This document shows, in pieces, positions 13,173-61,209 of a stretch of 64,000 nucleotides of DNA. Each line of letters starts with the position of its first letter. The stretch's first letter is position 1. The stretch comes from Nannocystis bainbridge (GTDB lineage Bacteria > Myxococcota_A > Polyangia > Nannocystales > Nannocystaceae): positions 576,001-640,000 of the forward strand of contig NZ_JAQNDL010000004.1 in assembly GCF_028368995.1 (NCBI RefSeq). The letters run 5' to 3'. The notes below the pieces were generated by a model, which saw nothing but the letters and a program-made list of their open reading frames with translations, was not told the DNA's origin and ran no database searches. The translations under genes were made by a program, and so were the position numbers.

Positions 13173-14405
13173 ATGTCCGCTTCGTCTCCCGCCGCTCCGT
13201 TCGACGCGCAGGCGTTCGATGCTCACGTGATGTCGACGTACGCCCGCTACCCGATCGCGCTCGAGCGCGGCGAGGGGTGCAGGGTGTGGGACACGGAGGG
13301 GCGGGCTTACCTCGACTTCGCGGCCGGGATCGCGACCTGTACTTTGGGACATGCCCACAAGAACCTGGTCGAGGCGGTGACGCGGCAGATCGGCAAGCTG
13401 CACCACGTCTCGAACCTGTTCTACATCCCCGAGCAAGGCGCCCTGGCGGCGCTGCTGGCGGCGCTGGGGGCGGGGGAGCGGGCGTTCTTCTGCAACTCGG
13501 GGGCGGAGGCCAACGAGGCGGCGATCAAGCTGGCGCGCAAGTATGGGCGCACGCGCCTCGGCATCGAGAAGCCGGTGGTGATCGCGGCGCAGGCGAGCTT
13601 CCACGGGCGCACGCTGGCGACGCTGACGGCGACCGGGCAGGCCAAGTACCAGCAGAACTTCGACCCGCTGGTGCCGGGCTTCGTGCACGTGCCGTTCAAC
13701 GACGCCACCGCGCTCGGCGAGGCGATCGTCGAGCTCGACCGCGAGCGCAAGCAGGTGGCCGCGGTGCTGATGGAGCCGCTGCAGGGCGAGGGCGGGATCC
13801 GGCCCGGCGATCCGGCGGTGTTCCGCAAGATCCGCGAGCTGTGCGACGCCCGCGGGATCCTGCTCATGTTCGACGAGGTCCAGGTCGGCGTCGGCCGCAG
13901 CGGCAAGTGGTGGGGCCACCAGCACCTCGACGTCGAGCCCGACGTCATGACGCTGGCCAAGGGCCTGGCCGGCGGGGTGCCGATCGGCGCGATGCTCTGC
14001 AAATCGAGCTGCGACGTGTTCCAGCCCGGCGACCACGCGAGCACGTTCGGCGGCAACCCGCTGGCGTGCGCGGCGGCGCTGGCGGTGCTGATGACGATCG
14101 AGAAGGACCGGCTGGTCGACAACGCGCGGCAGCGCGGCGACCAGCTGCGCGCGGGGCTGCAGGCGCTGGCGAAGTCGTCGCCGGGCAAGATCGCCGAGGT
14201 GCGCGGCTGGGGCCTGCTGCTCGGCGCGGAGCTGGGTCCGTCCGAGACGCGCACGGCTCCCGAGATCGCCCGCGCGGCGCTCGACGCCGGGCTCCTGCTG
14301 GTCCCCGCGGGGCCGCGGGTGATCCGCTTCGTGCCGCCGCTGATCGTGTCGTCGGCCGAGATCGACGAGGCGCTGGCGGTGTTCGCCAGGGTGCTGGCGG
14401 GGTGA
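13173..14405 (+). CDS. argD: Acetylornithine aminotransferase
   Basis: FFCNSGAEANEAAIK, SFHGRT, EPLQGEGG, FDEVQVG, LAKGLAGG, HASTFGGNP; next to the arg operon. Confidence 0.92.
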   Translation: MSASSPAAPFDAQAFDAHVMSTYARYPIALERGEGCRVWDTEGRAYLDFAAGIATCTLGHAHKNLVEAVTRQIGKLHHVSNLFYIPEQGALAALLAALGAGERAFFCNSGAEANEAAIKLARKYGRTRLGIEKPVVIAAQASFHGRTLATLTATGQAKYQQNFDPLVPGFVHVPFNDATALGEAIVELDRERKQVAAVLMEPLQGEGGIRPGDPAVFRKIRELCDARGILLMFDEVQVGVGRSGKWWGHQHLDVEPDVMTLAKGLAGGVPIGAMLCKSSCDVFQPGDHASTFGGNPLACAAALAVLMTIEKDRLVDNARQRGDQLRAGLQALAKSSPGKIAEVRGWGLLLGAELGPSETRTAPEIARAALDAGLLLVPAGPRVIRFVPPLIVSSAEIDEALAVFARVLAG

Positions 14406-14515
14406 GCCTCGTTGACCTGTCTTTTCAGGCAGGTAGGATCTTCTCTCCCGCTGGCTGCGGTGCCGAAACCGCGCCGTGAGGCCGACGGGCGGCGTGCTAT
14501 CGTCGAGCTCGGCTC

Positions 14516-15841
14516 ATGACTGCGACCCTCGAATCGATCCGTGAACAGCTGGCTGCCGGCGACGCCTCCGGCGCGTGGCGGGCCCTCACGCAGGTGTTCG
14601 GTTACCCCGCGGGCGGGTCGCTCGACGAGGAGGGGTTCGCCGCGGCGCTGACGCTGACGGTCTCGATCACGCACGAGCTGGCCGGCGAGGAGGGCGTGGC
14701 CAAGATGGTGCCGGCGGCCCTCACCCCCGACGATCCGCGGGCGCTGTTTTTGGCCGGCTGGTGGCTGGCCGAGGAGCGGCAGTTTGCGATCGCGGCCAGC
14801 GTGCTCGAGCGGGCCAATCAGCTGGCGCCGGGGCAGGCCGAGATCGCCGGCGAGCTGGCCAACGCGCTCGAGCACTTGCTTCACTACGGGCCGGCGGCGC
14901 TGGTGCTCGAGGCGTCGGGGCGTGCCGACGACGATCCGCTGCTGGCGTACCTGTCGGGCTTTTACTGGCTGATGTGCGGCGACCTCGAGCGGCCGCGAGC
15001 GCGGCTGCAGCTGCTCGCCGACGTGACCGAGACCAACCTCGTGTTCATGCGCGAGGCGCTGGCAGGGATGCTGGCGCGGGCCGAAGCGCTGACGGCCGCG
15101 GGCGTGGGGCTGGAGGGCGACGCGCTGACGGCCTGGCACGCGGTGCTCAACGGTTCGCTGCTGCTCCACGAGTCGCCGCACGGCTACCCGGATCCGATGC
15201 ACGGGCGGTTCGCGTTCCTCAACGACTCGGCGACGCTGCAGCGGCTGGGGCTCGCCCGGCTGGAGCGGCTGCTGGACGCGGTCGGGCAGCGGCCGGAGCG
15301 GATCCTCGCCGCCCCCGATCGCGCCAGCCAGATCCTCGCGCACGCGGCCGCGCTGGTGCTGGAGCGGCCGCTCGAGCCGTGGACGGCCGACGCCGGGCGC
15401 CCGGGGCTGGTGGTCGCGTGGAGCCTCGATCATGTCGGCGACGTCGCGTTCCTCCGCGGCATGCGGGACCACGCGCCGGGGCGGCCGCTGTTCGTGCACG
15501 TCACCGACTGGATCGAGCCGTTCGCCTACGCGCCCGACGTGGCGACGCTGCTGGCGCAGACGGTGTTGCATCCGTTCACCGGCGGCGCGCTGACGTACGA
15601 CGCGGCGACGCAGCAGCCCGGCAGGGCCGAGCCGGACCCGCGCGAGGACGCCGAGCTGGGCGCGCTGGTGGCGGCGACGCCGGTCGCCGACGACAGCGCG
15701 GCGCCGCTCGAGCGCGTGATCGAGATCGACCGCGCGCTGGCGGGGCTGGCCGCCGATCGGCGGCCGGGGCTGCACCGCGCGGGCGGTCCGCGGCTGATCC
15801 ACCGGGCCGGCAGCCCGGTGCCGAGCAACTTCTTCCGGTGA
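14516..15841 (+). CDS. Hypothetical protein with helical/TPR-like N-terminus
   Basis: 441-aa ORF with typical high-GC codon usage; no recognised catalytic motif. Confidence 0.65.
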   Translation: MTATLESIREQLAAGDASGAWRALTQVFGYPAGGSLDEEGFAAALTLTVSITHELAGEEGVAKMVPAALTPDDPRALFLAGWWLAEERQFAIAASVLERANQLAPGQAEIAGELANALEHLLHYGPAALVLEASGRADDDPLLAYLSGFYWLMCGDLERPRARLQLLADVTETNLVFMREALAGMLARAEALTAAGVGLEGDALTAWHAVLNGSLLLHESPHGYPDPMHGRFAFLNDSATLQRLGLARLERLLDAVGQRPERILAAPDRASQILAHAAALVLERPLEPWTADAGRPGLVVAWSLDHVGDVAFLRGMRDHAPGRPLFVHVTDWIEPFAYAPDVATLLAQTVLHPFTGGALTYDAATQQPGRAEPDPREDAELGALVAATPVADDSAAPLERVIEIDRALAGLAADRRPGLHRAGGPRLIHRAGSPVPSNFFR

Positions 15842-15932
15842 GGTTGTCTTTCGGACATGTCCATCGGGGCATGTCTGAAAGAGCCTGAACGTTCGGGCAT
15901 GTGAAAGAGGACATGTCCGAACGGGCATGTGA
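15840..15932. repeat. 14-bp tile array (6 cores)
   Basis: Cores at 15853, 15867, 15881, 15895, 15909, 15923 with spacers atcg/gaaa/gttc/aaga/gaac. Confidence 0.92.
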
Positions 15933-16089
15933 TGCGCGCACGCGCACGCGCGGGCGCTTGCGGGAGGCCGGGCTCAGCGGAGCGCGGCGGGCGTGGCAGC
16001 GCCGGCGGTCGCCGGTGTGTGCAATGGGCGGGCTCCGTGGGGCGGTTCGCGGCGAGCGGGGCAGCGCTGGCGGTTGCGGGCGGCCGGGC

Positions 16090-17385
16090 TCAGCGGAGCG
16101 CGGCGAGGCGGGCTTGCAGGCGGTCGAGGCCGAGGTTGCCGGGGCCGCCGAGGCTGACGCGGGCCTGCAGGCTGGCCTCGGGCGACCTGTCCTTCAGGTC
16201 ATGCATCTCGGCCGCGGCCTGGCGGTAGGCGTCGCGAAACGGCACGCCGGCGCGGGCCAGCTCGACGGCGCGGTCGGTGGCGTGCAGCTCGCCGTCGATG
16301 GCGGCGCGCATGCGGGCGCGGTCGAGCTCGAGCGTACCCACGAGCGCGGGCACGAGGGCGAGGCCGGCGAGGCCGCGGGTGAACGCGCGCAGGGTCGGGG
16401 CCTTGGTGGCCTGGAGGTCGCGGTGGTAGCCGCTCGGCAGCGACAGCAGCGACGACAGCTCGGACATCGCGCCCTCGGTGACGGAGGGCACGGCGCGCAG
16501 CAGCTCGACGACGTCCGGGTTGCGCTTGTTGGGCATGATCGACGAGCCGGTGGTGTAGGCGTCGGGCAGGCGCACGAACGCGAACTCGGCGGTCGAGAAC
16601 AGCGACAGGTCCCAGGCCAGGCGGCGGACGTCGAGCAGCGCCTGGTGCAGCGCCTGCACCGCCAGCAGCTCGAGCTTGCCGCGGCTGTTCTGGGCGTAGA
16701 TCGGCGAGACCTGCACGCGCGAGAAGCCGAGCTCGTGGGCGACGCCGTCGCGGTCGAGCGGGAGGTTGACGCCGTAGCCGGCGGCGGTGCCGAGCGGGCT
16801 CGAGTCGAGGGTGTGGGCGGTGGCGCGCGCGGTCTCGGCGTCGTCGAGGAAGGCCTCGGCGTGGCCGGCGAGCAGGGCGGCGAGCGACGACGGCACGGCC
16901 CGCTGCAAGTGGGTGTAGCCGGGCAGGGCGACGTCCTGGGTGGCCTCGGCGCGCTGCAGGCAGGCGTCGGCGCAGTCGAGGCAGCGCGCGCGCAGGGCCC
17001 CGAGGGCGTCCTTGAGCCACAGGCGCATGGCGACGAGGATCTGGTCGTTGCGGCTGCGGCCGGTGTGGACCTTGCGGCCGACGTCGCCGAGGCGCTCGCC
17101 GAGGTACCACTCGATGGCGGAGTGGCCGTCCTCGAAGCGGTCGTCGAGCACGAACTCGCCGCTGCGCACGGCCTCGGCGAACGCTTCGAGGCCCGCCACG
17201 AGGGCCTCGGCCTCGCTCGTGGCGAGCACGGCGATGCGCTGCAGGCCGTGGACGTGGGCGATCGAGGCGCGGACGTCGTGGAGGATCAGCTGGCGATCGA
17301 GGACGACGTCATCGCCGGCGCAGAACGCCTGGGCGGCGGCGTCGAGGGCGGCCTGGCCCTTGTCCCATAGCGGTCGGGTGCTCAT
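16090..17385 (-). CDS. argH: Argininosuccinate lyase
   Basis: HTGRSRNDQ, PGYTHLQRA, TGSSIMPNKRNPD, SGYHRDLQ. Confidence 0.96.
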   Translation of the reverse strand: MSTRPLWDKGQAALDAAAQAFCAGDDVVLDRQLILHDVRASIAHVHGLQRIAVLATSEAEALVAGLEAFAEAVRSGEFVLDDRFEDGHSAIEWYLGERLGDVGRKVHTGRSRNDQILVAMRLWLKDALGALRARCLDCADACLQRAEATQDVALPGYTHLQRAVPSSLAALLAGHAEAFLDDAETARATAHTLDSSPLGTAAGYGVNLPLDRDGVAHELGFSRVQVSPIYAQNSRGKLELLAVQALHQALLDVRRLAWDLSLFSTAEFAFVRLPDAYTTGSSIMPNKRNPDVVELLRAVPSVTEGAMSELSSLLSLPSGYHRDLQATKAPTLRAFTRGLAGLALVPALVGTLELDRARMRAAIDGELHATDRAVELARAGVPFRDAYRQAAAEMHDLKDRSPEASLQARVSLGGPGNLGLDRLQARLAALR

Positions 17386-17442
17386 GCGGTGCTCCTGGCG
17401 GCGAGGCGGTGGTCTGGTCTTCGGGACAGGTGCGGCGCGCGC

Positions 17443-18396
17443 TCACGGGCCGGCGGGCTCGGGGTCGCGCGGCACCCCCTGGCGCTCGGGCAGGCCGAGG
17501 GCGAGGTTCAGGTTCTGCAGGGCCTGCGAGGCGGCGCCCTTGAGCAGGTTGTCGAGGGTGACGACGACGACGGCGTGGCGGTCGTCGACGTGGAGGCCGC
17601 CGATGGTGACGTCGTGGCGGCCGGCGACGTCGCGGACCTCGGGGATGTCGCTCGTGACGCGCACGAGCGGCTCGTCGGCGTAGACGCTGCGGTAGCGCTC
17701 GAGCAGCTCGGCGCGCTCGAGCGAACGCGCGAGCGGGAGGGTGATCGTCAGGGTGATGCCGCGGAAGAACGGGGCGACGTGAGGGACGAAGCGGACCGCG
17801 TGGCCGAGGTGATGGCTGGCCTCGCGCTCGTGCAGGTGGCCGGTGAGGGCGTAGGGCATGAGGTTGTCGCGCAGGCGCTCGGGGTCGTTGCGCGGCGAGG
17901 GGGTGGTGCCGGCGCCGCTGTAGCCGGACACGCCGAAGGCCTGCGGCGGGCCGGCGAGCAGCTCCAGCAGCGGAGCGACGCCGAGCTGGATGCCGGTGGC
18001 GTAGCAGCCGGGGTTGGCGATCCGGCGGGCGCCGCGGATCTGGGCCCGGTGGCGCTCGGGCAGGCCGTAGGCCCAGGCGGGGTCGAAGCGGTAGTCGGCC
18101 GAGAGGTCGACGAGCACGGGGCCGCGCGCGTCCAGGGCGTCGGCGTAGGCGGCGGCGAGGCCGTTCGGCAGGGCGAGCACGACGGCGTCGACGGGCCAGG
18201 AGGCGACTGTCTCGGGGGACATGTCCTCGAGGACAATGTCGGCGGGGGCGTCGGTGAGGTGGGCCCGCAGCGGGTCGCCGACGCCCTGGCGCGAGGCGGC
18301 GCGGGTCAGGCGGAGGTCGTCGTGGCCGGCGAGCAGGCGCGCGAGCTCGCCGCCGACGTGGCCGCGCGCGCCGACGAGGCCGAGGGTGAAGCTCAT
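17443..18396 (-). CDS. argC: N-acetyl-gamma-glutamyl-phosphate reductase
   Basis: GARGHVG, DLSADYR, ANPGCYAT, SGYSGAG, DNLLKGAASQA. Confidence 0.95.
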   Translation of the reverse strand: MSFTLGLVGARGHVGGELARLLAGHDDLRLTRAASRQGVGDPLRAHLTDAPADIVLEDMSPETVASWPVDAVVLALPNGLAAAYADALDARGPVLVDLSADYRFDPAWAYGLPERHRAQIRGARRIANPGCYATGIQLGVAPLLELLAGPPQAFGVSGYSGAGTTPSPRNDPERLRDNLMPYALTGHLHEREASHHLGHAVRFVPHVAPFFRGITLTITLPLARSLERAELLERYRSVYADEPLVRVTSDIPEVRDVAGRHDVTIGGLHVDDRHAVVVVTLDNLLKGAASQALQNLNLALGLPERQGVPRDPEPAGP

Positions 18397-18409
18397 GGCC
18401 GGCCTCCGT

Positions 18410-18489
18410 GAACAGGGTCGAAAGGACATGTCCACAGGAGCATGTCGTCATGGACATGCCCGCTGGGGCATGTCTGAAGGGGCATGGCG
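18410..18489. repeat. 14-bp tile array (6 cores) inside the arg operon
   Basis: Cores at 18410, 18424, 18438, 18452, 18466, 18480 between argB/A and argC. Confidence 0.92.
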
Positions 18490-18499
18490 ACGGGCGGGG

Positions 18500-19828
18500 T
18501 CACGCGGCGCCTCCGATGGTGTGCGCGGCCTCCAGGGTCGGCGGGGCGGCGAGGGCCCGCTCGACGCACTCCTGGATGGTCGGGAAGTCGGTGACGCCGG
18601 TCCAGAACACGGTCCAGGTGCCGCCGCTGTAGCTGCCGTCGGCGCGCTGGAAGTACCAGGGGTTGATCGGGTTGTCGACGCGGGCGCGCCAGAACAGCTG
18701 CGGGGTGTCCCGGGTCATGCGCTGCCACAAGGAGCCGCCGATGCCCTCGCCCTGGGCCTCGCCGGTGACGGCGAACTTGTCGAGGTAGGGGATCGGGCCC
18801 TCGTCGGTGAGGATGGCGGCGGCGCGGTAGCTGTCGGCCAGGTAGATCCGGCGGAACGGCTTGCGGGTGAAGTAGTCGGCGACCGGGGGCCGGCCGAAGG
18901 CGGCGGCGAGCAGGTCGGCGAGGCGCGGCAGGTCGACGCTGGCGAGCGACGGGTGGAGGATGATGCGCTCGCCGCGGCGGACCAGGGTGCCCGAGCCCTT
19001 GTGGGTGAAGAGCTCCATGGCCAAAAGGTCAGGTGAGGTGATCGAGACCGAGGAGGCGCGCGGGAGCCTGCCGAGGAGGTCGTGGATCAGCGCGAGCTTG
19101 TGGCGGGTGCTGTCGGTCAGCCACGGCTCGGCGAGCAGCGGCTCGTAGTCTTCGGCGAGGTTGACGGCCGAGATGAGGTCGCCGTACTCGTCGCGCAGGC
19201 CGCCCCGGGCCCGCAAGAAGATGATCTTGTAGGGCTGCAGGCGGACCGCGAGGGCGTGCGCGGCGAGGTCGGGGCCGAGGTCGAGGATCTGGCCGCCGGC
19301 GGTCTCGCCGATGCTGGCGAGCACGGGCATCGAGCCGGCCTTGAGGCTCGACTCGATGGCGTCGGTGTCGACGCGCACGATCCGCGCCCGCTGCTCGGCG
19401 TCGCGGTCGGCGTCGTCGAGCTCGGCCGCGAACACGCCGCCGACGACGGGCCGGCCGCGCGCGCCCATCTCCTCGAGCATGTCGACGAGCCGCAGGTTCT
19501 CGGCGCGGAACACCCGGCGCACCTGCTCGAGCGCGCGCGGCGAGGTGCGCTGGGACCAGTCGGTCGGGTCGATGCCGGCGGCGGTGAAGGCGGCCTGCAG
19601 CTGCGGCCCGACGCCGTGCACGACGACCGGGTGGAGGCCGACCTGGTGGAGGAAGTTGAGCGAGGAGGCGAGGCTCTCGAGGTCGTCGGCGAGCAGGCCG
19701 CCGCCGACCTTGATGACGGCGAAGCGCTTGTGCTCGACGCTCGAGAATTGCTTGAGGTACTGCTCGACCTCTTTGCGGCCGCCGAGGTTGCGCAGCAGCT
19801 TGACGATCAGCTCGCGGGGGTTGGGCAT
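18500..19828 (-). CDS. argB: Acetylglutamate kinase with C-terminal NAT domain (bifunctional NAGS/K type)
   Basis: FAVIKVGG, VVHGVGPQL, ELFTHKGSGT, YLDKFAV, LFWRAR, NPINPWY. Confidence 0.9.
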   Translation of the reverse strand: MPNPRELIVKLLRNLGGRKEVEQYLKQFSSVEHKRFAVIKVGGGLLADDLESLASSLNFLHQVGLHPVVVHGVGPQLQAAFTAAGIDPTDWSQRTSPRALEQVRRVFRAENLRLVDMLEEMGARGRPVVGGVFAAELDDADRDAEQRARIVRVDTDAIESSLKAGSMPVLASIGETAGGQILDLGPDLAAHALAVRLQPYKIIFLRARGGLRDEYGDLISAVNLAEDYEPLLAEPWLTDSTRHKLALIHDLLGRLPRASSVSITSPDLLAMELFTHKGSGTLVRRGERIILHPSLASVDLPRLADLLAAAFGRPPVADYFTRKPFRRIYLADSYRAAAILTDEGPIPYLDKFAVTGEAQGEGIGGSLWQRMTRDTPQLFWRARVDNPINPWYFQRADGSYSGGTWTVFWTGVTDFPTIQECVERALAAPPTLEAAHTIGGAA

Positions 19829-19841
19829 GGTCGTGAGAACT

Positions 19842-20996
19842 TCAGGACAGGATCGCGCGGTAGCGGGTGGCCGCCTCGACGAGGTCGGCCAGGGGGACGT
19901 ACTCGCCCGCGGTGTGGGCCTGCTCGATCGAACCTGGCCCATAGACCAGGACGTCGCAGCCGGCGGCCGAGAACAGGGCGGCCTCGGTCCAGAAATCGAC
20001 GGGGTCGCCGGGCGGGAGGCCGAGGCGGGCGGCCAGGGCGGACGCGGCCTGGCGGGCCGCCGTCAAGCGCGCGGGGCCGCCGGCGGGCAGCGGCGGGGCG
20101 AGGAAGCCGGGCGTGAAGCGGACGCGCGCGGGGTCGGGCGCGAGCGCGAACAGCTCGGCGAGGGCGAGCTCGGGCGGGAGCTCGGGCGGCGGCCGCACGC
20201 CGAAGCGCACGGTGGCGGCGCTGGCGATCATGTTGGCCTTGAGGCCGCCCTCGACGGCGCCGAGGTTGAGCCGCAGACCCCGGAGCGAGCCGGCCGCGCC
20301 GGCGGTCTCGCTGGCGCCCGCGCGGGCGAGGGCGAGGCTGGCCCAACGGACGGCCTCGTGGACGGCGCTGTCGCGCAGGGCCCGGGCGGCGGAGGCGTGG
20401 CCGCCGATGCCGGAGAACACGGCGGTGGCGGTGCCGATCCCGCGGTGCTCGAGCACCGCGCGGCAACGGGTGGGCTCGGCGACGACGACGCTGCGGAAGG
20501 TCGGGTGCGAAGCTGTCCCGGAGGACATGTCGGATGTCCGCGGGGACAGGTCGGAGCGGGTCAGGAATTCGCGGATGCAGCGGCTGCTGCCGGCCTCCTC
20601 GTCGGACGAGAACAGCACGGCGGCGGGGCCGGTGGTGGCCTCGAGCACGCTCAGGAGGCAGGCAGCGGCGCCCTTGATGTCGCAGGCGCCGAGGCCGACG
20701 GCGAGGTCGCCCTCGATGCGCAGGCGGTGGGGGTCGGCGGTCCAGCCGGGGTCGGCGGGCACGGTGTCGACGTGGACGTTGAACAGCACCTGCGGGGCGC
20801 CGCGCACGGCCAGCAGGTAGACGCAGCCGTCGCCGAGGTCGACGGTGTCGCAGGTGAGACCTGACCCCTGGAGCATGTCCCGCAGGTACGCGAACAGCCC
20901 GGCGTCGCCGGCGATCGCCCGCGGCGGGTTGCGGGTGTCGAAGGCGACCAGGCGCGTCAGGTGTTCGAGGGTGCGCCGGAGCGTGGCTTCGGTCAT
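19842..20996 (-). CDS. argE: Acetylornithine/acetylcitrulline deacetylase
   Basis: DTRNPPR, FNVHVDTVP, GACDIKG, DEEAG, AEPT, DFWTEA, QAHTAGE; start overlaps the argG stop (ATGA). Confidence 0.92.
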   Translation of the reverse strand: MTEATLRRTLEHLTRLVAFDTRNPPRAIAGDAGLFAYLRDMLQGSGLTCDTVDLGDGCVYLLAVRGAPQVLFNVHVDTVPADPGWTADPHRLRIEGDLAVGLGACDIKGAAACLLSVLEATTGPAAVLFSSDEEAGSSRCIREFLTRSDLSPRTSDMSSGTASHPTFRSVVVAEPTRCRAVLEHRGIGTATAVFSGIGGHASAARALRDSAVHEAVRWASLALARAGASETAGAAGSLRGLRLNLGAVEGGLKANMIASAATVRFGVRPPPELPPELALAELFALAPDPARVRFTPGFLAPPLPAGGPARLTAARQAASALAARLGLPPGDPVDFWTEAALFSAAGCDVLVYGPGSIEQAHTAGEYVPLADLVEAATRYRAILS

Positions 20997-22222
20997 CGCT
21001 GCCCGGGGCGCCGGCGCGGGTTGACGCGCGCGGACAGGGTCGAGCTCATGCCGAGCAGCTTGATGAAGCCCTCGGCCTCGCGGGCGTCCCAGTCGGCCGA
21101 CTGAGCGTAGACGGCGCCCTTGTTGCGCAGGATGTGCTCGGAGCGCACGGCGATCGGGGTGACGACGCCGCCGGCGGTCTCGAGGGTGACGGTGCCGTTG
21201 ACGACGGCCTGCGACGAGCGCAGGAACGCCTCGAGGTCGTCCTTGAGCGGCTCGAAGAAGAAGCCGCGGTAGACCAGCTCGACCCACTTCTTGGCGACCA
21301 GCGGCTTGAAGCTGTTCTGGTTGGCGGTGAGGATGGCCTCCTCGAGCGCGCGGTGGGCCGTCATCAGGCCGGCGATGCCGGGGCACTCGAACACGATCCG
21401 GCCCTTGAGGCCGATGGTGGTGTCGCCGGTGTAGATGTTGCGGCCGACGCCGTAGGCGCCGAGGCGCTCGTTGAGGCGGCGCAGGATGTCGGGGCCGGCC
21501 ATCGCCTCGCCGTCGAGCTTGACGGCGACGCCGCGCTCGAAGGTGATGTCGAAGCGCGCGGGCTGCCGCGGCCAGTCCTCGGGGCGCGCGCACATCTGCC
21601 AGGTCTCGGGCCCGGGGGTCTGAAACTCGTCGATCTCCGAGCCCGAGGCGGTGACGCCGAGCAGGTTGACGTTGATGCTGTACTTGGCGGTCTTGGGCCG
21701 CACGTGGTGGCCGAGCTTCTGCAGGTACTCGGCCTCGTAGGCGCGCACGGCGTGGTGCTCGTGCTGGATGTCGCGGATCGGCGCGACGATGTCGTAGTCG
21801 CCGAGCGAGCGCACGGTCTGGTCGAAGCGGACCTGATCGTTGCCCATGCCGGTGCAGCCGTGGGCGAACACGCGGGTGCCGCGAGCGTCGCACAGGGCCA
21901 GCGCGCGCTCGACGATGATGTAACGATCGCTGACGAGCAGCGGGTAGACGTCCTGGTAGAGCTGGCCGCCGATGACGAGGGGGACGACGACGTCGTCCCA
22001 GATCGGCTGGGCGCCGCTCTCGGTCACGTGCTCGACGGCCCCGAGGTCGCGCGCGCGCTGCTCGATGTAGGCCCGCTCGGCGTCGTCGACGCCGCCGGTG
22101 TCGACGAACAGGGTGACGACTTCGTAGCCGCGCTCGCGCAGGTAAGGCACGCAGAAGCTGGTGTCGAGGCCGCCGGAGAAGGCGAGCACGACCTTCTTGT
22201 TCGAAGCTGTACTTTGGGACAT
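20993..22222 (-). CDS. argG: Argininosuccinate synthase
   Basis: LAFSGGLDTS, HGCTGMGNDQVRF, GLKGRIVFE. Confidence 0.96.
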   Translation of the reverse strand: MSQSTASNKKVVLAFSGGLDTSFCVPYLRERGYEVVTLFVDTGGVDDAERAYIEQRARDLGAVEHVTESGAQPIWDDVVVPLVIGGQLYQDVYPLLVSDRYIIVERALALCDARGTRVFAHGCTGMGNDQVRFDQTVRSLGDYDIVAPIRDIQHEHHAVRAYEAEYLQKLGHHVRPKTAKYSINVNLLGVTASGSEIDEFQTPGPETWQMCARPEDWPRQPARFDITFERGVAVKLDGEAMAGPDILRRLNERLGAYGVGRNIYTGDTTIGLKGRIVFECPGIAGLMTAHRALEEAILTANQNSFKPLVAKKWVELVYRGFFFEPLKDDLEAFLRSSQAVVNGTVTLETAGGVVTPIAVRSEHILRNKGAVYAQSADWDAREAEGFIKLLGMSSTLSARVNPRRRPGQR

Positions 22223-25062: not shown

Positions 25063-26289
25063 ATGGCAGCAGCTTTGTCGAGGATCGACCCACCGAGCAC
25101 GCCGGGCCTGTTGGCGCTGGCCGACGGGACCCTGTTTCGCGGCCGCGCGCTCGGAGCCCACGGGCGCACGTGCGGCGAAGTCGTGTTCAACACGGCGATG
25201 ACCGGATACCAGGAGGTCGTCTCCGACCCGAGCTATCACCAGCAGATCGTGACGCTGACGGCGGCGCACGTCGGGGTGGTCGGGGTCAACGCGGACGACG
25301 AGGAAGGCCGCGGGCCGCAGGTCGCCGGGCTGGTGGTCCGCGACGCGCCGCGCATGTTCGCGTCGTGGCGCGGGCGCGAGAGCCTGGGGGCGTATCTGCA
25401 GCGCGCGGGGGTGGTGGCGGTGGCGGACATCGACACGCGCCGGCTGACGCACCTGCTGCGCGAGCGCGGGGCGATGGCGGGCTGCGTGGCGGCCGGCGAG
25501 GCGGCCCGCGACGAGGCGGGCTGCGTGGCGGCGGCGCGGGCGTTCCCGGGGCTGCAAGGCGCGGCGCTGGCGGAGGCGGTCAGCGTGCCGGAGCCGGCCG
25601 GGTGGACGGCGGGCTCGGTCCGCTGGCTCGAAGGACATGTTCGTGAGGGCATGTCCGATGCGGCAGGTCCGGAGGGGCATGTTCGTGAGGGCATGTCCCC
25701 GGGGGCAGCCGGGCACGTGGTGGCGTTCGACTTCGGGATCAAGCGCAACATCCTGCGGCTGCTGGTCGACCGCGGGCTGCGGGTGACGGTGGTGCCGGCG
25801 GCGACGACGGCGAGCCAGGCGCTGGCGCTGCGGCCGGACGGGATCTTCCTGTCGAACGGGCCGGGCGATCCGGAGCCGCTGCAGGCCCAGCAGGCGGCGA
25901 TCCGCGAGCTGGTGGCGGCGGGGCTGCCGGTGTTCGGGATCTGCCTCGGGCACCAGCTGCTGTGCCTGGCGCTGGGGGCCCGCACGTTCAAGATGAAGTT
26001 CGGCCACCACGGGGCCAACCACCCGGTGCGCGAGCTGGCGAGCGGGCGGGTGCTGATCACGAGCCAGAACCACGGGTTCGCGGCCGACCCGGCGACGCTG
26101 CCGGCGGCGCTGCGGGCGACGCATGTGTCGCTGTTCGACGGGTCGCTGCAAGGGGTGGAGCTGGCGGATCGGCCAGTGTTCTCGTTCCAGGGCCACCCGG
26201 AGGCGTCGCCGGGGCCGCGCGAGCTGGCGGGGCTGTTCGACAGGTTCGCCCGCGAGGTGAGCGCGGGCCGGACCACGAAGGGGGTGTGA
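25063..26289 (+). CDS. carA: Carbamoyl-phosphate synthase small subunit
   Basis: [55 protein letters not shown]; exact start uncertain. Confidence 0.96.
25633..25707. repeat. 14-bp tile array embedded in frame in carA
   Basis: Cores at 25633, 25647, 25661, 25675, 25689; 42-bp internal duplication encoding EGHVREGMS twice. Confidence 0.92.
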
Positions 26290-26290
26290 C

Positions 26291-29440
<3,150 letters not shown>

Positions 29441-48396: not shown

Positions 48397-49821
48397 TCAT
48401 GCGCCCGCGGTGAGGGGCGGGCCGAGGCCGTAGGTGGCGGGGTCGAGGGCGTAGCAGCCGGCGAGGATCGGGCCGCCGCGGGCCAGGCTGTCGCGGCTGG
48501 CGCGGGCGTGGGCGGCGAAGCGGCCGAGGGCCTCGAGGTCGTCGGTGGCGGCGAGGTCGGTGTGCTCGGCGACGAGCTGGAGGAGGAGCGGGAGGCAGTG
48601 CGCGCGGCCCCACCAGGCGGCGTTGAGCTCGGTGTGATCGCGGTCGAGGCTGAGGTCGACGAGGTTGGCGGAGCCGAGAGTGGCCCACGCGCCGTCGACG
48701 ATGCACAGCTTGGCGTGGGTGTAGATCTCGCGGTGGCCGTCGGCGTCGCTGCGGGCGAGCGCGGCGAGGGTGAAGCCGGGGCGCTGCGCGAGGGCGTTGA
48801 GCTGGGCGAAGGTCGGGCCGTAGCGGTGCTCGTGGGTGCGACCGTCGCGGGCGAGCGCGGCGACCTCGGCGGCGGCGCGGCCGATGGCGGCCATGGGCTC
48901 GCCCGGGACGACCATGACGACGCGGACGCCGCGACGCAGCGCGGCGTCGAGGGCGAGGAGGACGGCGTGCTGGCCGGGGTGCTGGTTCTCGATGTAGATG
49001 GTGCGCCGCGCGGCGGCGATGGCGGCGAGGTAGTGGGCGAGGATGGTGGCCTCGCCGGCGTCGCTTGCGAAATCGGGGGCGCCGACGATCGGGGTCGGGC
49101 CGCGGTAACCGTCAGGGGCGAGGGTGCGCGCGAGCTGGACCCGTACGTCGCCGCAGGCGGGCGGGAGGCGCCCGGGGTAGGCGAGCGGGCCGGCGCGCAG
49201 GTCGTCCGGCCACGGCGGGGCGTCCGGGTCCTGGCGAGCGAGGTTCCACCGCTGGACGAAGTTGTGCTCGGCGTCGGCGACGACGGGGCCCTGCAGCTCG
49301 AGGAAGGCGTCGTGCTTGTGGAGGCCGTGGTGATGGCCAGGGCGGGCGAGGGTGGAGTCGCTGAGGATCATGCCGCCGACGAAGGCGAGGGCGTCAGGCT
49401 GGCCGGCGTCGACGAGGAAGGCCTTCTGGTGGTGGCAGTGGGCGGGCTCGGCGGAGCTGTCCCAACGGGCAGCCCAGCCGGCGCGGCGGGCAGCGAGGAG
49501 CTGGCGCTCGGCGGGGCCGCCGAGGAAGACGTGACGGGTGCTCGAGAACCGCGGGTTGCGCCAGAACAGGACCCGCACGTCGAGGCCGCGGGCGTGGCAG
49601 CGATCGAGCAGGTCCCACCAGGCGAGGCCGTCAGGCAAGCGGAAATCGGGCTGGATGAAGGAGACGATGACCCACAGGCGGGTGCGGGCGGCGGCGACGG
49701 CGGCGGCGAGGCGCTCGAAGAACGGGAGGCCGTCGATCCACGGGACGACGCGGTTGCCGTCCCGCACGGGGTACGGGCCGTGATCGTCGGCGATGGCGAG
49801 CAGGCCGTCGTCCTCGTGCAC
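48397..49821 (-). CDS. Phospholipase D family protein
   Basis: Two HKD motifs (HQKAFLVD, HAKLCIVD), IYIENQ, GSANL; GTG start estimated. Confidence 0.88.
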   Translation of the reverse strand: MHEDDGLLAIADDHGPYPVRDGNRVVPWIDGLPFFERLAAAVAAARTRLWVIVSFIQPDFRLPDGLAWWDLLDRCHARGLDVRVLFWRNPRFSSTRHVFLGGPAERQLLAARRAGWAARWDSSAEPAHCHHQKAFLVDAGQPDALAFVGGMILSDSTLARPGHHHGLHKHDAFLELQGPVVADAEHNFVQRWNLARQDPDAPPWPDDLRAGPLAYPGRLPPACGDVRVQLARTLAPDGYRGPTPIVGAPDFASDAGEATILAHYLAAIAAARRTIYIENQHPGQHAVLLALDAALRRGVRVVMVVPGEPMAAIGRAAAEVAALARDGRTHEHRYGPTFAQLNALAQRPGFTLAALARSDADGHREIYTHAKLCIVDGAWATLGSANLVDLSLDRDHTELNAAWWGRAHCLPLLLQLVAEHTDLAATDDLEALGRFAAHARASRDSLARGGPILAGCYALDPATYGLGPPLTAGA

Positions 49822-49875: not shown

Positions 49876-50003
49876 GGGCGCGCCGGAGATCGTAACATGT
49901 CGCGAGGGACATGTCCTCGGGGACATGCGATCAGGGGCGCGCCGGAGATCGGTACATGTCGCGAGGGACATGTCGCGAGGGACATGTCCTCGGGGTCATG
50001 CGC
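49876..50003. repeat. Duplicated tile arrays (59-bp unit duplication)
   Basis: GGGCGCGCCGGAGATCG..ACATGTCGCGAGGGACATGTC twice; cores 49893/49907/49921 and 49952/49966/49980/49994. Confidence 0.92.
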
Positions 50004-50018: not shown

Positions 50019-50804
50019 TCAGGGGGTGCTGACCTCGACGTCGAGGCAGAAGTGGGCCGAGCGCGAGTCGTACCAGTCGCGCAGGTTGGTCAGCGGGGTG
50101 TCGCAGTGGTCGCCGGGATCGTCGATGGCGACCAGGCCGTCGCCGGGGGCGTCGCCCATGTGATCGGCGTGGAGGACGAGGGTCGAGGTCGAGCCGCCGC
50201 CGGTGATCCGCAGGCAGAAGTGCTGGGTGTCCAAAAGGACAGGTGGGTCGAGCTCGAAGTCGCGGTAGTCCATGCCGCCGTCGATGGTGCCGAGCTCGCG
50301 GGTGTCGAGCACGGCGAGCACGGGGGCGTGGTTGCCGGGGTCGTAGGGGAGGACGTCGAGGACGGCCGACGGCTCGCCGACGGCGAAGCGGACCTCGAAG
50401 CCTAACCGGGTGAGCTGCAGCGGCGGCGGGGCGGGGGCGGTGAAGCACTCGACGGCCTCGATCTTGGCCGAGACGGGGTCGCCGCCGCTCATGCAGAAGG
50501 GGCCGTCGATGCAGCGCGCGGGATCGTAGGGGCGCAGGGTGGTGGGCTCGAGCGGACCGGTGGTGGGCTCGGCGGTGGTGCTCGAGCTGGTGGTCGTCGA
50601 GGTGGTGGAAGAGACGGCGGCGGTGGTGGTGGAGTCGTCGCTGGTCGCCGCGGGGCCGGTGGTCGGCAGGCCGGTGGTGGTGGTGCCGCCGGTGGTGGTG
50701 GTCGTCGCGGCGCCGCCCTCGGTGGTCGCGCCGTCGTAGCTCGGGTTCGGGCGCAGGCACCCGCCGAGGACGAGGACGAACAGGTGGGCGAACCGAGGCC
50801 TCAC
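50019..50804 (-). CDS. Hypothetical lipoprotein with Thr-rich linker
   Basis: Lipobox LVLGGC followed by LRPNPSYD, Thr-rich linker, Cys-containing C-terminal domain. Confidence 0.7.
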   Translation of the reverse strand: MRPRFAHLFVLVLGGCLRPNPSYDGATTEGGAATTTTTGGTTTTGLPTTGPAATSDDSTTTAAVSSTTSTTTSSSTTAEPTTGPLEPTTLRPYDPARCIDGPFCMSGGDPVSAKIEAVECFTAPAPPPLQLTRLGFEVRFAVGEPSAVLDVLPYDPGNHAPVLAVLDTRELGTIDGGMDYRDFELDPPVLLDTQHFCLRITGGGSTSTLVLHADHMGDAPGDGLVAIDDPGDHCDTPLTNLRDWYDSRSAHFCLDVEVSTP

Positions 50805-52473: not shown

Positions 52474-53262
52474 TCAGCCGGGCGGGCCGTTGTCGGGATC
52501 TGGCCCCGGGGACAGGTCGACGATGGTGGCGCCCCATCCGCCGCCGCGGTGGCCGCCGAGGCGGTAGGCGACGACGCGCGGGTGACGATCGAGGATCGCG
52601 TGCACGGTCCGTCGCAGGGCGCCGATGCCCTTGCCGTGGACGATGCGGACCTCGGTGATGCCGCGCGCGCGGCAGACTTCGAGGTACTCGAGCACGAGGC
52701 GCTTGACGTCCTTGGGGCTGAAGTTGTGGAGGTCGAGCTCGCCGTCAACGGGCAGCTCGGCGGCGCGGTCGGAGCCGGCGAGGGCGCCGAAGAAGCCGGC
52801 GCGCCCGGCCCACGGAGCCCACGGGAGCGCGGTGACGGGAGCGGGCTGATAGGCGGCGGGCCGCGGGAGGGCGCAGCGATGGACGGTGCGGGCGGCCCGG
52901 GCGAACGGGTTCCACGGGCGCTGGCCCTGGGCGGGGCCGGGCTGCCAGCGCTCGCCGACGCGGAGCTCGAGGGTGAAGCGGCCGGGGCGGCCGGGCCAGC
53001 GTTCGGCGACGATCCGCAGGTCGCCGAACAGGGCGGCGCCGATCAGGTCGAGGGCGAGGGCGGCCTGATCGTCGCTGTCGTCGTCGTCGGCGAGCGCGAA
53101 CGAAGCTGTCCATCCGGACAGGTCGACGCGCAGGCGATCGCCGTCGCGGTGGACGCCGAGCTCGAGGTCGCCGAGGCGGACGACGCCGGGGGGCGAGGGC
53201 GCGAGGCCGCAGGCGGCGAGCATGGCGTCGAGTGCGTGCGCGAAGGCCTCGCCGGGGGTCAT
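52474..53262 (-). CDS. Smr-domain protein with an uncharacterised N-terminal domain
   Basis: ELDLHNF, VRIVHGKGIGALR, GGWGATIVDL. Confidence 0.85.
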   Translation of the reverse strand: MTPGEAFAHALDAMLAACGLAPSPPGVVRLGDLELGVHRDGDRLRVDLSGWTASFALADDDDSDDQAALALDLIGAALFGDLRIVAERWPGRPGRFTLELRVGERWQPGPAQGQRPWNPFARAARTVHRCALPRPAAYQPAPVTALPWAPWAGRAGFFGALAGSDRAAELPVDGELDLHNFSPKDVKRLVLEYLEVCRARGITEVRIVHGKGIGALRRTVHAILDRHPRVVAYRLGGHRGGGWGATIVDLSPGPDPDNGPPG

Positions 53263-53334
53263 GGCCACGAGAGTGTAGGCGCGGTCGGCTGCGCGAGGCC
53301 AGGCGCGGCGGCGCGAGCGTGCTAGGAACGCGAC

Positions 53335-55814: not shown

Positions 55815-55894
55815 ATAGGTGTCCGTGAGGACATGTGCGAAGGGACCTGTGCGTCGGGACAGGGCCGATCGCGCATGTCCTCGCGGACATGCGC
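55815..55894. repeat. 14-bp tile array (6 cores)
   Basis: Cores at 55815, 55829, 55843, 55857, 55871, 55885; convergent junction. Confidence 0.9.
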
Positions 55895-55897
55895 CGT

Positions 55898-58360: not shown

Positions 58361-58615
58361 CGGCGAAGCTCATCACAGGCGCCTGGGCCGATCAACCGGC
58401 GGGGCCCTGGGCTGTTTCTGCGCTTGTCCGCGTGCGACGACGGTCCTCGGGCCGAGCACGAGGCGCGACGAACGCGGCCGGCGAACGTGAACGAACGGCG
58501 CGTCGACGTTTACCGCCGGTTGATGCGCGGGCGAGAAGTCGTGGCGGTCCGTCACCGTCGAGGCGTCACTCGACGAACCGCGCACGGAGCCGGTCGTCAC
58601 CACCCGAAGGTACCG

Positions 58616-59110: not shown

Positions 59111-59295
59111 GCGCGGCCCGGCGAACGTCGTGCGCCCGCCGCGATCCGCTCGATCGCGGCAGGGCGCGGCGAATGCGAGGCGGCGAGGCGCGATCGCGCG
59201 GCTGCATCATTCGGTGAGATCGAGCCGGCGAGACCGCGGCGGGCTCGACGATTTGCGCAAGTGACAGCGGCGCAACAGGACGACAGGTTGGCGGC

Positions 59296-59601
59296 ATGTC
59301 CACTGCCAACGATCACGTCCACGTCGTCGCCACCCTGCAAGCCCTGCCGGATCAAATCGCCTCGCTGGCGGCGCTGCTCGGCGAGCTGGCCCGGACTTCG
59401 CGCCAGGAGGCCGGCAACCTGCGCTTCGATGTCCACCAGCAAGCGTCGAACCCGAGCCAGCTGATCACGATCGAACACTGGGACGGGTCGGCCTCGGTCG
59501 ACGCGCACATGACGAGCGCGCACGTCGGGACGGTGCTGGCCAGGCTGGCGCCGCTGCTGGCCGCGCCGCCGCAGATCGTGCGCTACAGCCAGATCGCGTG
59601 A
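59296..59601 (+). CDS. Antibiotic biosynthesis monooxygenase (putative quinol monooxygenase) family
   Basis: SRQEAGNLRFDVHQ, IEHW, AHMTSAH. Confidence 0.85.
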   Translation: MSTANDHVHVVATLQALPDQIASLAALLGELARTSRQEAGNLRFDVHQQASNPSQLITIEHWDGSASVDAHMTSAHVGTVLARLAPLLAAPPQIVRYSQIA

Positions 59602-59613
59602 GGCCGGACGCGG

Positions 59614-61209
59614 TCAGCCGTCGGTCTTGCGGAAGCGATAGGCGAGCTGCGGCCGCGTGAGCCCGAGCAGGCGCGCGGCGGCGGCGAGGTTGCCTCCGGC
59701 GCGGTCGACGGCGCCGCGGATGAGCGCCTGCTCGAGCGCGTCGATGCCGGCGCGGCGATCGAGCAGGGCGCCGATGAGCTCGTCGACGCCCGGGAGGTCG
59801 GCCCCGGCGGCGGCTCCGATCGGCTGGAGGACGCCCGCGGGCGCCAGCTCGAGGCGCGCGGGCGGGGCCTCGTCGCCGCTGAACAGGTGGCCGCGATCGA
59901 TCGGCGCGCCGTCGTCGACGAGCACCGCGGCGCGAGCGATCCGTCCCCACAGCTCGCGCACGTTGCCGGGGTAGTCGTGATCGAGGAGGGCGTTGTTGGC
60001 GGCCTCGGTGACGCCGACGAGCCGCCGCCCGAGGCCGCGCGCGTGCTGGTCGAGGAAGCGGCCGAGCAGCAGCGGGATGTCCTCCCGCCGCTCGCGCAGC
60101 GGCGGGACCCACACCGGGAAGGCGCCGAGGCGCTGGACCAATTCGTCGCGCACGAGGCCGCCGCGCCGCAGGTCGACGCGGGTGCTGGCGAGCCAGCGCA
60201 GGTCGTGATCGCCGGCGTCGAAGGCGTGGAGTAACCTGTCCTGAAGTTCAGGTGAGAGGCGATCGAGGTCGGCGAGCAGGAGGCTGCCGCCGCGGGCCCG
60301 CGCGAGCGCATCGGCGAGACCGGCGGGGTCGAGGGCGCCGGCGCGCACGACCACGAAGGGGCCGGCGGCGCGGCGGCTGCGGTCGTGCACGGCGCGGGCG
60401 AGGTGGCGCTTGCCGACGCCGGGCTCGCCCTCGAGCAGGACGGGCAGCTCGGAGCCGGCGACGCGCGCGAGCAGGGCGAAGGCGCCGCGCAGGCCGGTGG
60501 CGTGACCGATGACGGGTCCGTCGTCGCGCGCGAGAGCGGCGGGCGGATCGCCGGGGCCCGGGCGCGCGATCGGGTGGGTGGCGAGGAACTCGAACTCGGG
60601 CGGTGGGGTGTCGTCGCCGAGCGGTCGGCCGACGATCCGGCAATGACGCGCGCCGCAGGCCCGACAGGCGACCTCGCGGTAGACGATCGGCCGACCCATG
60701 AAGACGGTGGTGAAACCGCTGGCGTAGCCGAGCATGGTCCAGCACACGGGCTCGGCGGCCCGACCCTCGCTTTCGAGGTGAGCCTCGACCTCGGCGGAGC
60801 TGCGCCAGGCGAACTCGCCGCGGTAGTGGCCGCGCTCGATGTCGAACTGGACCTCGAGCGGGCGCACGGCGACCATGCCCTCGAGCGCGTGCAATTGCGG
60901 GCCGGCGGCGAACAGCTCGTAGTAGCTGGCGGTGCCGCGGATCCGGCGGGCGTATTCGCCGTCGCGCTGGCCGGAGACGTAGCCCATGCGGGTCAGGATG
61001 GCCCGCGCCCGGGCGACGCCGACGGCGGCGATGAGCTCGCGCCGCAGGGTCGCCATGGCGCCGAGATGGACGAGCACCATGCGCTCGTCACCGAGGGTGA
61101 TCCGGCCGTCGCGCGGCCAGAAGCGCAGGTGCTTGAGCAGGTCGGCGCTGTCCGGCAGCCGCAGCGCGTCGTCGTCGCCAGCGGCGACGAAGGGCCCTTC
61201 TTCGCTCAC
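59614..61209 (-). CDS. XylR/DmpR-type regulator (XylR_N + V4R + degenerate AAA+ + Fis HTH)
   Basis: GDERMVLVH, AGPQLHALEG, PVCW...GYASG...EVAC...C; GEPGVGK; YPGNVREL; GNLAAAARLLGLTRPQLAYR. Confidence 0.88.
   Translation of the reverse strand: MSEEGPFVAAGDDDALRLPDSADLLKHLRFWPRDGRITLGDERMVLVHLGAMATLRRELIAAVGVARARAILTRMGYVSGQRDGEYARRIRGTASYYELFAAGPQLHALEGMVAVRPLEVQFDIERGHYRGEFAWRSSAEVEAHLESEGRAAEPVCWTMLGYASGFTTVFMGRPIVYREVACRACGARHCRIVGRPLGDDTPPPEFEFLATHPIARPGPGDPPAALARDDGPVIGHATGLRGAFALLARVAGSELPVLLEGEPGVGKRHLARAVHDRSRRAAGPFVVVRAGALDPAGLADALARARGGSLLLADLDRLSPELQDRLLHAFDAGDHDLRWLASTRVDLRRGGLVRDELVQRLGAFPVWVPPLRERREDIPLLLGRFLDQHARGLGRRLVGVTEAANNALLDHDYPGNVRELWGRIARAAVLVDDGAPIDRGHLFSGDEAPPARLELAPAGVLQPIGAAAGADLPGVDELIGALLDRRAGIDALEQALIRGAVDRAGGNLAAAARLLGLTRPQLAYRFRKTDG

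Follow-up and report, generated by a model that had tools for sequence, protein, structure and literature searches.

A palindromic motif common in Nannocystis is written into protein-coding genes mainly by substitution

Tile sites in a 64-kb region of Nannocystis bainbridge

The window analyzed here is a stretch of 64,000 nucleotides (nt) from Nannocystis bainbridge (assembly GCF_028368995.1, contig NZ_JAQNDL010000004.1, positions 576,001 to 640,000), with a G+C content of 72%, drawn from a genome of 11.05 Mb in 5 contigs. Its genes and spacers carry copies of a palindromic motif, here called the tile, with a 14-nt core of TGTCC-N4-GGACA (5+4+5). The tile is a short lineage-specific motif that is common in one genus, Nannocystis. 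A preliminary description of the window had claimed that it is spelled inside conserved genes through rare synonymous codons, that such sites arose by point mutation and not by insertion, and that the motif is functional rather than a selfish remnant. Every cited site was found at its coordinates with the codons described, and the gene names argD, argB, argC, argH, cysteine-synthase-like, and sigma-54 activator of the XylR/MobR kind were upheld by NCBIfam/Pfam. The label "lipoprotein" was borne out only by an LVLGGC lipobox-like stretch at the N terminus, as the gene in question (50019 to 50804, minus strand) matches no family.

For comparison within the genus, the syntenic region was taken from five close relatives, 3 to 12% divergent in genes (G001, G003, G005, G007, and G010; the present genome is G000), and orthologues from sister genera were used as outgroups. 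Bracketed numbers after codons give the share of each codon among its synonyms.

The arginine genes are clustered at 13227 to 22189 (argD, an unnamed gene at 14516 to 15841, argH, argC, a 442-residue argB, an M20 peptidase gene, and argG), and carA-carB lies 3 kb beyond this cluster. Within argD, a one-mismatch tile (13338 to 13351) is spelled TGT ACT TTG GGA CAT (0.10, 0.02, 0.04, 0.03, 0.10); ACT TTG GGA CAT was kept in five of six genomes, and the first codon varies between TGT and TGC. No close argD orthologue was found at an E value of ≤1e−80 in five other genomes of the family, and aminotransferase relatives of 35 to 40% identity show no indel at the site. A 16-nt tile variant shared by this site and position 22208, upstream of argG, suggested an arginine operator (ARG-box). 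This candidate was ruled out, as its 14-nt core has 9 copies spread over four contigs and the 16-mer has 4, and the TGTAC variant of the tile is generally enriched (31 versus 0.6). Near the 3′ end of argH, a one-mismatch tile (16188 to 16201) is present in G000, G003, and G010 and has been degraded by substitution in G001, G005, and G007; a 3-residue indel adjoins it in the outgroup alignment.

Residues 54 to 63 of argC are encoded by two abutting tiles (18208 to 18235), a one-mismatch copy at 18208 and an exact copy at 18222, which were kept in all six genomes. The outgroup reads ADVFLEEMTPERV where this genome reads ADIVLEDMSPETV, without an indel, and the site was therefore made by substitutions, five residue changes among them. 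The 10-nt palindrome at the junction of two abutting tiles is a textbook p53 half-site, surely by coincidence. The two-mismatch tile in argB (19018 to 19031) reads TCA CCT GAC CTT TTG GCC. Its outgroup encodes the same peptide, SPDLLA, with the common codons TCG CCC GAC CTG CTG GCG, and the change here, at five silent positions, was therefore purely synonymous; the two core mismatches that persist are exactly the positions whose change would alter residues. Between argB and argG, the M20 peptidase gene (19842 to 20996, minus strand), which may encode an argE-like deacetylase, carries two exact tiles (20514 to 20548) in 21-nt units of 7 codons. These units (20499 to 20563) encode DLSPRTS-like heptapeptides, form a 17-residue insertion relative to the outgroup, and differ in number among the six genomes.

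In carA, six 14-nt tiles follow one another in frame through the linker between CPSase_sm_chain and GATase (25624 to 25707; 84 nt, 28 residues), which has 15 extra residues relative to outgroup CarA. Six of six genomes have kept the length of this array, but its spacer letters and residues vary freely. The stop of carA is 1 nt from the start of carB (26277 to 26320), and a one-mismatch tile covers the first carB codons (26292 to 26305; ATG CCC AAA AGG ACA GAT, identical in six genomes). The codons after the start include four rare ones, where outgroups use CGC CGC, and this tile may also reflect codon effects of the start region. Further copies in carB are a one-mismatch tile at 27617 to 27630, kept in six genomes and differing in residues, without an indel, from five of five outgroups; a one-mismatch tile at 29280 to 29293; and an exact tile at 28575 to 28588, encoding ALSDGT, for which the sister-genus genome G013 has the same 21 nt. 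More distant outgroups have AVSDGK or AVGDGT there in common codons with no indel, and the tile was made by a V-to-L replacement, a change to S, and two silent changes.

Elsewhere in the window, the Peptidase_S10-domain gene (6369 to 8192, minus strand) has an exact tile at 7121 to 7134 that was kept in five of five close relatives; against relatives of 43 to 48% identity there is no indel and the residues differ. The one-mismatch tile of the MlaD-domain gene (12168 to 12181; gene 11386 to 12708, minus strand) sits in a 24-nt stretch identical in six of six genomes, again with differing residues and no indel against outgroups. One-mismatch tiles are also found in the FG-GAP repeat protein gene (34146 to 34159; gene 33828 to 35105, minus strand), where the site was kept in six genomes, and in gene 48397 to 49821 (minus strand; tile at 49458 to 49471), for which the sister-genus genome G040 has the same peptide and near-identical codons. 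The cysteine synthase/cystathionine beta-synthase-like gene carries a two-mismatch tile (35859 to 35872, GCA TGT CCG AAA) with variable residues and no indel against outgroups. The putative lipoprotein gene has an exact tile with a TTTT spacer (50228 to 50241, CCA CCT GTC CTT TTG GAC), and intergenic tile arrays of 14-nt period lie downstream of it (49898 to 49998). Two copies occur in the Smr-domain gene (52474 to 53268, minus strand), one with a mismatch (52501 to 52514) and one exact (53107 to 53120); the latter was degraded by substitution in G005 and G007 and has no indel at the site relative to the outgroup, from which its residues differ. The two-mismatch tile of the sigma-54 activator gene (60237 to 60250; gene 59614 to 61209, minus strand) reads TCA CCT GAA CTT CAG GAC AGG TTA, with six of these eight codons rare. 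Although the window has genes on both strands, each of its 2-kb bins has positive G-C skew (0.01 to 0.30).

Abundance and distribution of the tile

The genome contains 1987 exact tile cores, compared with 3 copies of a reversed control pattern, and roughly 7000 near-consensus copies with at most one mismatch. Based on our own gene calls, made from codon statistics (8003 genes covering 83% of the genome), 754 exact cores (38%) lie wholly within genes, 1221 are intergenic, and 12 straddle a gene border; 1560 of the 8003 genes carry a copy. Intragenic tiles are spread evenly along genes, and 1962 of 2181 intragenic clusters are single tiles. The commonest spacing between tiles is 14 nt. Tiles cluster most densely in protein-level repeats of large genes, where multi-tile repeats have periods in multiples of 3, and inspection by eye of the 14 densest loci identified protein repeats or spacers and no candidate transposase. 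Tiles become denser as local G+C increases and are sparsest in genes of low GC3 (G+C at third codon positions).

Six near-complete Nannocystis genomes (11 to 13 Mb, 80 to 91% complete by markers) have 1550 to 2090 tile copies each, and five smaller assemblies of the genus have 114 to 959. Two sister genera have 87 and 161 copies and the other 18 genomes searched at most 7, with control patterns giving 0 to 10. Literature searches found no paper on the tile motif or on palindromic repeats of Nannocystis; the papers listed for the decamer concern p53 or unrelated topics.

Excess of tiles over synonymous expectation

Intragenic counts were compared with those obtained after shuffling synonymous codons within each gene, a null that keeps the protein sequence and codon usage and ignores codon context. 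Exact cores exceeded this expectation 34-fold (754 versus 22.2 ± 4.8 in 20 shuffles), and one-mismatch cores were also in surplus (1723 versus 419). Two-mismatch cores taken together were not enriched (4037 versus 4629). Each was given a flank score based on the flanks and spacer alone, that is, on positions left free by the core search, and the picture among high-scoring two-mismatch cores was different: 1214 versus 185 at a score of ≥4, 642 versus 54 at ≥6, and 248 versus 9.3 at ≥8. Sites with tile-like flanks were thus enriched 6.6- to 27-fold at two core mismatches and up to 11-fold at three. Given this enrichment, and flank scores of 4.0 for argB, 6.9 for the cysteine-synthase-like gene, and 9.0 for the sigma-54 activator, these three two-mismatch sites of the preliminary description are very probably tile-derived.

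By a 22-nt position weight matrix, intragenic sites scoring ≥14 number 3459 genome-wide versus 201 expected. In the 47 genes of the window, 27 such sites were found, while 200 shuffles gave 0.78 ± 0.81 with a maximum of 3. GTCC-N4-GGAC with T..A flanks was found 754 times where 20 were expected; for seven control cores or spacings, the ratio came to about 1x with T..A flanks and to 0.16x to 1.7x overall relative to shuffles. The pattern CTCC-N4-GGAG was about 6-fold depleted in genes (124 versus 774), which may represent avoidance of Shine-Dalgarno-like GGAG inside genes.

The claim that the sites go beyond what amino acid sequence and codon bias would produce was therefore confirmed, by 754 exact cores against 22.2 and by the 27 window sites. 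The contrary explanation, in which matches simply follow from protein sequence and codon bias and an A/T-containing motif merely picks out rare codons, can draw on two facts: the link with rare codons is partly built in, every core frame forcing at least one A/T-ending codon, and two-mismatch cores as a whole are not in excess. It does not account for the surplus of exact cores, for the window count, for the normal behavior of control motifs, or for the raised share of A/T third positions (0.2 to 0.54) at codons that the search pattern leaves free. Chance in this sense is refuted by the shuffle, free-codon, and flank-score results, and we give it practically no weight.

Rare codons and encoded peptides

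Genes of this genome use almost only G/C-ending codons, as had been claimed: by our gene calls, A/T-ending codons make up 5.7% of the total, third positions being 94% G/C. At codons within tiles that the pattern does not fix, the A/T share of 0.2 to 0.54 stands against 0.057. Runs of at least four rare codons (the first 10 codons of each gene skipped) numbered 643. Of these, 101 overlap a tile with at most one mismatch and 202 a tile with at most two, although such tiles cover only 0.59% and 1.5% of codons, respectively. The reported tie between rare-codon runs and tiles is therefore real in that runs are concentrated there 20- to 27-fold, but it is not exclusive, with 542 of the 643 runs lying away from tiles of at most one mismatch. 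For a rare-codon cluster in these genomes, it would be advisable to check for a tile before calling a translational pause or foreign DNA.

The tile is realized in all three reading frames. Exact intragenic copies number 429 in frame NNT GTC CNN NNG GAC ANN, 261 in NTG TCC NNN NGG ACA, and 64 in TGT CCN NNN GGA CAN, an order that favors frames with common codons, and in each frame 37 to 44% of the peptide sites that could encode the core do so. Overall, 754 of 1891 core-compatible peptide sites (∼40%) spell the tile, whereas codon usage predicts 11. Compatible peptide sites are themselves 1.8x as frequent as in residue-shuffled proteins (1891 versus 1055), and since this surplus is about the number of realized tiles, protein sequences themselves have been bent to fit the tile. 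In the outgroup alignments of the window, tile sites sit at poorly conserved residues. A DNA-level signal overrides both codon choice and residue choice. Genes designed for these natural-product producers may have to retain the tile or be free of it.

Origin of intragenic tiles

The outgroup comparison covered 17 tile or tile-like sites in one window; in the sister genus represented by G013, 8 of 134 genes in 100 kb had a counterpart. At 14 of the 17 sites the alignment contained no indel, two sites were insertions, and one had an adjoining indel. The 14 sites therefore arose by substitution, and intragenic tiles arise mostly in this way. Four exact sites (7121, 18222, 28575, and 53107) have an outgroup that aligns without an indel, and none of the outgroup peptides could encode the tile; amino acids therefore changed too. 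Origin without indels, as had been claimed for the cited genes, was seen for argB, argC, and carB against outgroups and for argD only against the relatives of 35 to 40% identity. The word "synonymous" holds fully for argB only, the other sites having also changed amino acids at variable residues.

The assertion that sites arose "not by insertion" fails at the M20 peptidase gene, with its 17 inserted residues, and at the carA linker, with its six tiles and 15 extra residues. Both would be expected of a mobile palindromic element whose intragenic copies are mainly in-frame insertions of a spreading hairpin, the rare codons being its own sequence. The variable copy number of the insert in the M20 peptidase gene would also fit such an element, as would the multi-tile repeats in large genes with periods in multiples of 3 and the intergenic arrays, which vary between species and at whose gene borders alignment blocks end. 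The remaining evidence makes a mobile element an improbable source of most copies. Beyond the 14 indel-free outgroup alignments, only 3 of 56 sites compared within the genus show an indel versus 12 lost by substitution; nine-tenths of intragenic clusters are single tiles; and insertion of a 14-nt unit would break the reading frame. At the argB site, only silent positions differ from the outgroup, and no Y1 transposase was found in the genome (90.5% complete by markers).

Conservation of tiles among relatives

Conservation was assessed for sites defined in G000 only, and since pairs of genomes share ancestry, significance is overstated, though the effect is large. Silent third positions within exact-tile cores differed in 2 of 129 pairwise comparisons, versus 16045 of 116078 elsewhere. 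The fairest control is provided by A/T-ending third positions, which differed in 14 of 130 comparisons inside tiles and in 3036 of 4481 (68%) outside; every aligned relative had the same nucleotide at 56 of the 66 distinct A/T third positions of tile cores. Among 56 sites with a matrix score of ≥14 and an aligned relative, 41 were kept in all relatives, 12 were lost by substitution in at least one, and 3 had an indel. When sites from any species were admitted, a test that is ascertainment-biased, the difference was not significant (10 of 58 versus 2659 of 10333; P = 0.17). Tiles thus persist under a strong pressure that eliminates rare codons elsewhere, in agreement with the claim of constraint on the DNA sequence itself.

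The 68% turnover of A/T-ending silent third positions outside tiles was recorded over 164 kb and five relatives despite a gene divergence of 3 to 12%; ordinary rare codons are therefore very short-lived in the genus. A possible sign of recombination, the sharing of the tile-closer state by G000, G003, and G010 at argB, argD, and argH, was dropped, this grouping being found at 86 of 2020 informative sites everywhere versus 5 of 42 in tiles. Across 34 window genes in six genomes, many sites contradict the concatenated tree (166 of 2020 informative sites, for example, group G000 with G001), which suggests frequent recombination among species or saturation of silent sites.

Placement between genes and reading of the tile as sequence

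The 1221 intergenic copies lie in 1.87 Mb and are unevenly distributed among spacer types. Convergent spacers have 5.5 tiles per kb (57% of spacers with a tile), tandem spacers 1.9 per kb (26%), and divergent spacers 0.68 per kb (16%). In tandem spacers, tiles lie a median of 69 nt past the upstream stop. Intergenic spacers did not align between relatives; blocks of alignment end at gene borders, and arrays vary between species.

The flanks differ somewhat by location. Among 642 single exact copies in genes, C (379 copies) and A (220) prevail at position −1, and G (338) and T (257) at position +14; among 858 intergenic singles, A (507) and T (525) lead at these positions. The flank (A/G)CCTGTCC-N4 that had been proposed for single intragenic tiles therefore holds as a tendency only.

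A position just after stop codons is what might be expected of an element acting in RNA, as a transcript hairpin or a rare-codon pause that affects stability, termination, or the pace of translation. Further features in keeping with this are the clustering of rare codons at sites, the occurrence of TTCG among common spacers, and the stable folding of arrays (−31.9 kcal/mol for 49898 to 49998; z = −4.3). Most observations point the other way. Single exact tiles reach only −3.7 to −7.5 kcal/mol on folding, and degenerate intragenic sites such as those of argD and argB do not fold as a tile hairpin. No covariation was detected in the flanks, where positions −1 and +14 form a Watson-Crick pair in 294 of 642 copies versus 290 expected under independence, or in the core, where pair 3/12 shows 10- to 18-fold enrichment of single changes and no enrichment of compensatory doubles (GC, 45 versus 34; CG, 22 versus 26). 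Spacers in tandem intergenic regions showed no strand bias with respect to transcription (93 versus 73), and position counts of 1233 intergenic copies contained no T-run after the tile, so that the pattern of an intrinsic terminator is lacking. The motif occurs in all three frames, hence no codon or peptide signal, and no Rfam family matched in the window. An RNA-level element is accordingly a very unlikely explanation. The tile is read as sequence and not as a hairpin, and from the lack of covariation and strand bias and from the unfolded degenerate sites, it looks like a pair of (A/C)TGTCC half-sites read on duplex DNA.

Selection or drive as the holding force

Taken together, a sequence-specific constraint at the DNA level, built mainly by substitution, is well supported and in our judgment likely. 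What imposes it is a separate matter. Our tentative preference, held at slightly less than even confidence, is for a genus-wide palindromic DNA tag, built mainly by substitution and held most likely by sequence-specific drive of the uptake-sequence kind. The two half-sites, 4 bp apart, would be read on double-stranded DNA, and we infer that the reader is most likely a dimeric protein. Intragenic copies would be built mainly by stepwise point substitutions, each site approaching the consensus as far as the protein allows, with a silent change yielding a rare A/T-ending codon and a nonsilent one a conservative replacement at a variable residue. A minority of copies would be in-frame insertions or expansions in linkers and low-complexity regions. 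Copies once made would be kept against the strong pressure on other rare codons, and the force we infer to hold them is a drive in which DNA with better tile matches would be favored in uptake, recombination, or repair. In its strictest form, in which the tag propagates itself (as a palindromic signal for uptake or recombination, or as a target of biased repair) without benefit from individual copies, this proposal is a little more doubtful still.

Drive is preferred because the maintenance of ∼4000 intragenic rare-codon sites under a pressure that turns over 68% of other A/T third positions would require a sizeable advantage for every one, and such an advantage is difficult to imagine for a single copy among roughly 7000 near the consensus. 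The same pressure counts against the alternative in which every tile is a functional site bound by an abundant dimeric DNA-binding protein and is kept by natural selection, for example, in nucleoid organization, as a transcription roadblock, or in the management of gene ends. This corresponds to the functional claim of the preliminary description and to the interpretation given for HIP1, an abundant cyanobacterial palindrome (see below). The palindrome with fixed spacing, the lack of hairpin covariation and of strand bias, and the conservation inside genes all suit selected sites. So do the strong placement at gene 3′ ends with avoidance of divergent promoter spacers and the HIP1 precedent (PMC5861425). 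Against such sites, even spacing along the chromosome was not found in the distribution of gaps between clusters, which is near-random (coefficient of variation, 1.2; 5.6% of gaps exceed three times the mean, versus 5.0% for an exponential). In addition, 12 of 56 sites were lost by substitution in at least one close relative. On balance, we regard selected binding sites as rather unlikely, yet the preference for gene 3′ ends and the selection reading of the HIP1 authors keep a functional role well alive. Selection and drive cannot be told apart on present data. The conclusion that the motif is functional rather than selfish does not follow, because sequence-specific drive would leave the same conservation.

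Several points weigh against drive. No Vsr homologue was found in the genome. The nearly universal ComEC (PF03772) and DprA (PF02481) each exceeded the cutoff once, but they also did so in 10 and 11 of 14 control genomes, respectively. Uptake sequences are not known to take the form of a spaced palindrome. The preference for gene 3′ ends, which drive alone leaves unexplained, points to a role or constraint linked to transcription. Drive predicts depletion of near-cognates, and the signal observed (425 versus ∼968) is only suggestive; it was rejected as proof of drive, control motifs ranging from 0.16x to 1.7x against the same shuffles. Both the gene calls, which are our own, and the relatives, which are not independent samples, call for caution. 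Finally, the HIP1 authors read a similar conservation as selection and not as replenishment by biased repair (PMC5861425).

If the drive interpretation is correct, Myxococcota would have their first known tag of this self-propagating kind, one that has rewritten ∼4000 coding sites and altered the amino acid sequence of about one-fifth of the proteins in the genus. Whichever force holds it, the tile offers a second, independent system for asking whether selection or drive keeps hyperabundant motifs, HIP1 and uptake sequences among them. It provides an unusually sharp contrast because the motif needs A/T where third codon positions are overwhelmingly G/C. The tile is also a ready-made probe for finding the reader protein.

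Comparison with known systems

Several families of abundant repeats resemble the tile in part. REP elements are palindromic units that occur in arrays after genes, mostly between convergent genes. Intergenic tiles are likewise arranged in arrays after genes and are densest between convergent ones. The tile differs from REP/BIME in that 754 of 1987 exact copies are inside genes, the unit is only 14 nt, and there is no hairpin covariation. A search for a RAYT (Y1 transposase, PF01797) gave 0 matches in this genome, while the same search matched 6 of 14 control genomes. The tile system is not REP/RAYT, because no Y1 transposase was found and 38% of its copies are inside genes.

Rickettsia palindromic elements are selfish DNA of 100 to 150 nt that enters genes in frame by insertion. 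The carA linker and the M20 peptidase gene provide comparable in-frame palindromic repeats in protein genes; for the tile, however, insertion is a minority route and most copies came about by substitution. In E. coli, very-short-patch repair makes CCWGG over-represented, a case of sequence-specific repair that enriches a motif at the expense of similar sequences. The tile's near-cognates also appear depleted, but the depletion is not clean against control motifs, the tile is much longer, and a Vsr homologue was not found.

DNA uptake sequences (uptake signal sequences [USS] of Pasteurellaceae and DNA uptake sequences [DUS] of Neisseriaceae) share more with the tile. Their intergenic copies lie at gene ends as inverted repeats, to which intergenic tiles can be likened, and both are short, lineage-specific motifs in thousands of copies with a large intragenic share. 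According to one study, uptake sequences in coding regions about double the frequency of the peptides they encode, prefer frames with preferred codons, and occupy poorly conserved residues (PMC2817400). The tile matches that description, raising the frequency of encoded peptides and preferring common-codon frames and poorly conserved residues. The same study reports that uptake sequences are absent from genes without homologues and favor long-resident genes (PMC2817400); the lower density of tiles in low-GC regions and low-GC3 genes may be compared with this scarcity in newly acquired genes. The tile departs from uptake sequences in being a palindrome with a 4-bp spacer, in forming 14-nt tiled arrays, and in belonging to a different phylum. 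In its sequence pattern, it appears to behave like an uptake sequence, a kind of motif defined by biased uptake.

HIP1 (GCGATCGC) of cyanobacteria is described as over-represented by 15- to 300-fold, with conservation both inside genes and between them (PMC5861425). The tile palindrome is similarly over-represented inside genes (34-fold), is also present between genes, and is conserved between genomes inside genes. HIP1 is further reported to be a contiguous 8-mer, tied to two methyltransferases and periodic along the chromosome, whereas the tile is built as 5+4+5 with near-random gaps, and intergenic tiles strongly prefer gene 3′ ends. Judged by these patterns, the tile would seem to be built and kept much like DNA uptake sequences or the HIP1 palindrome.

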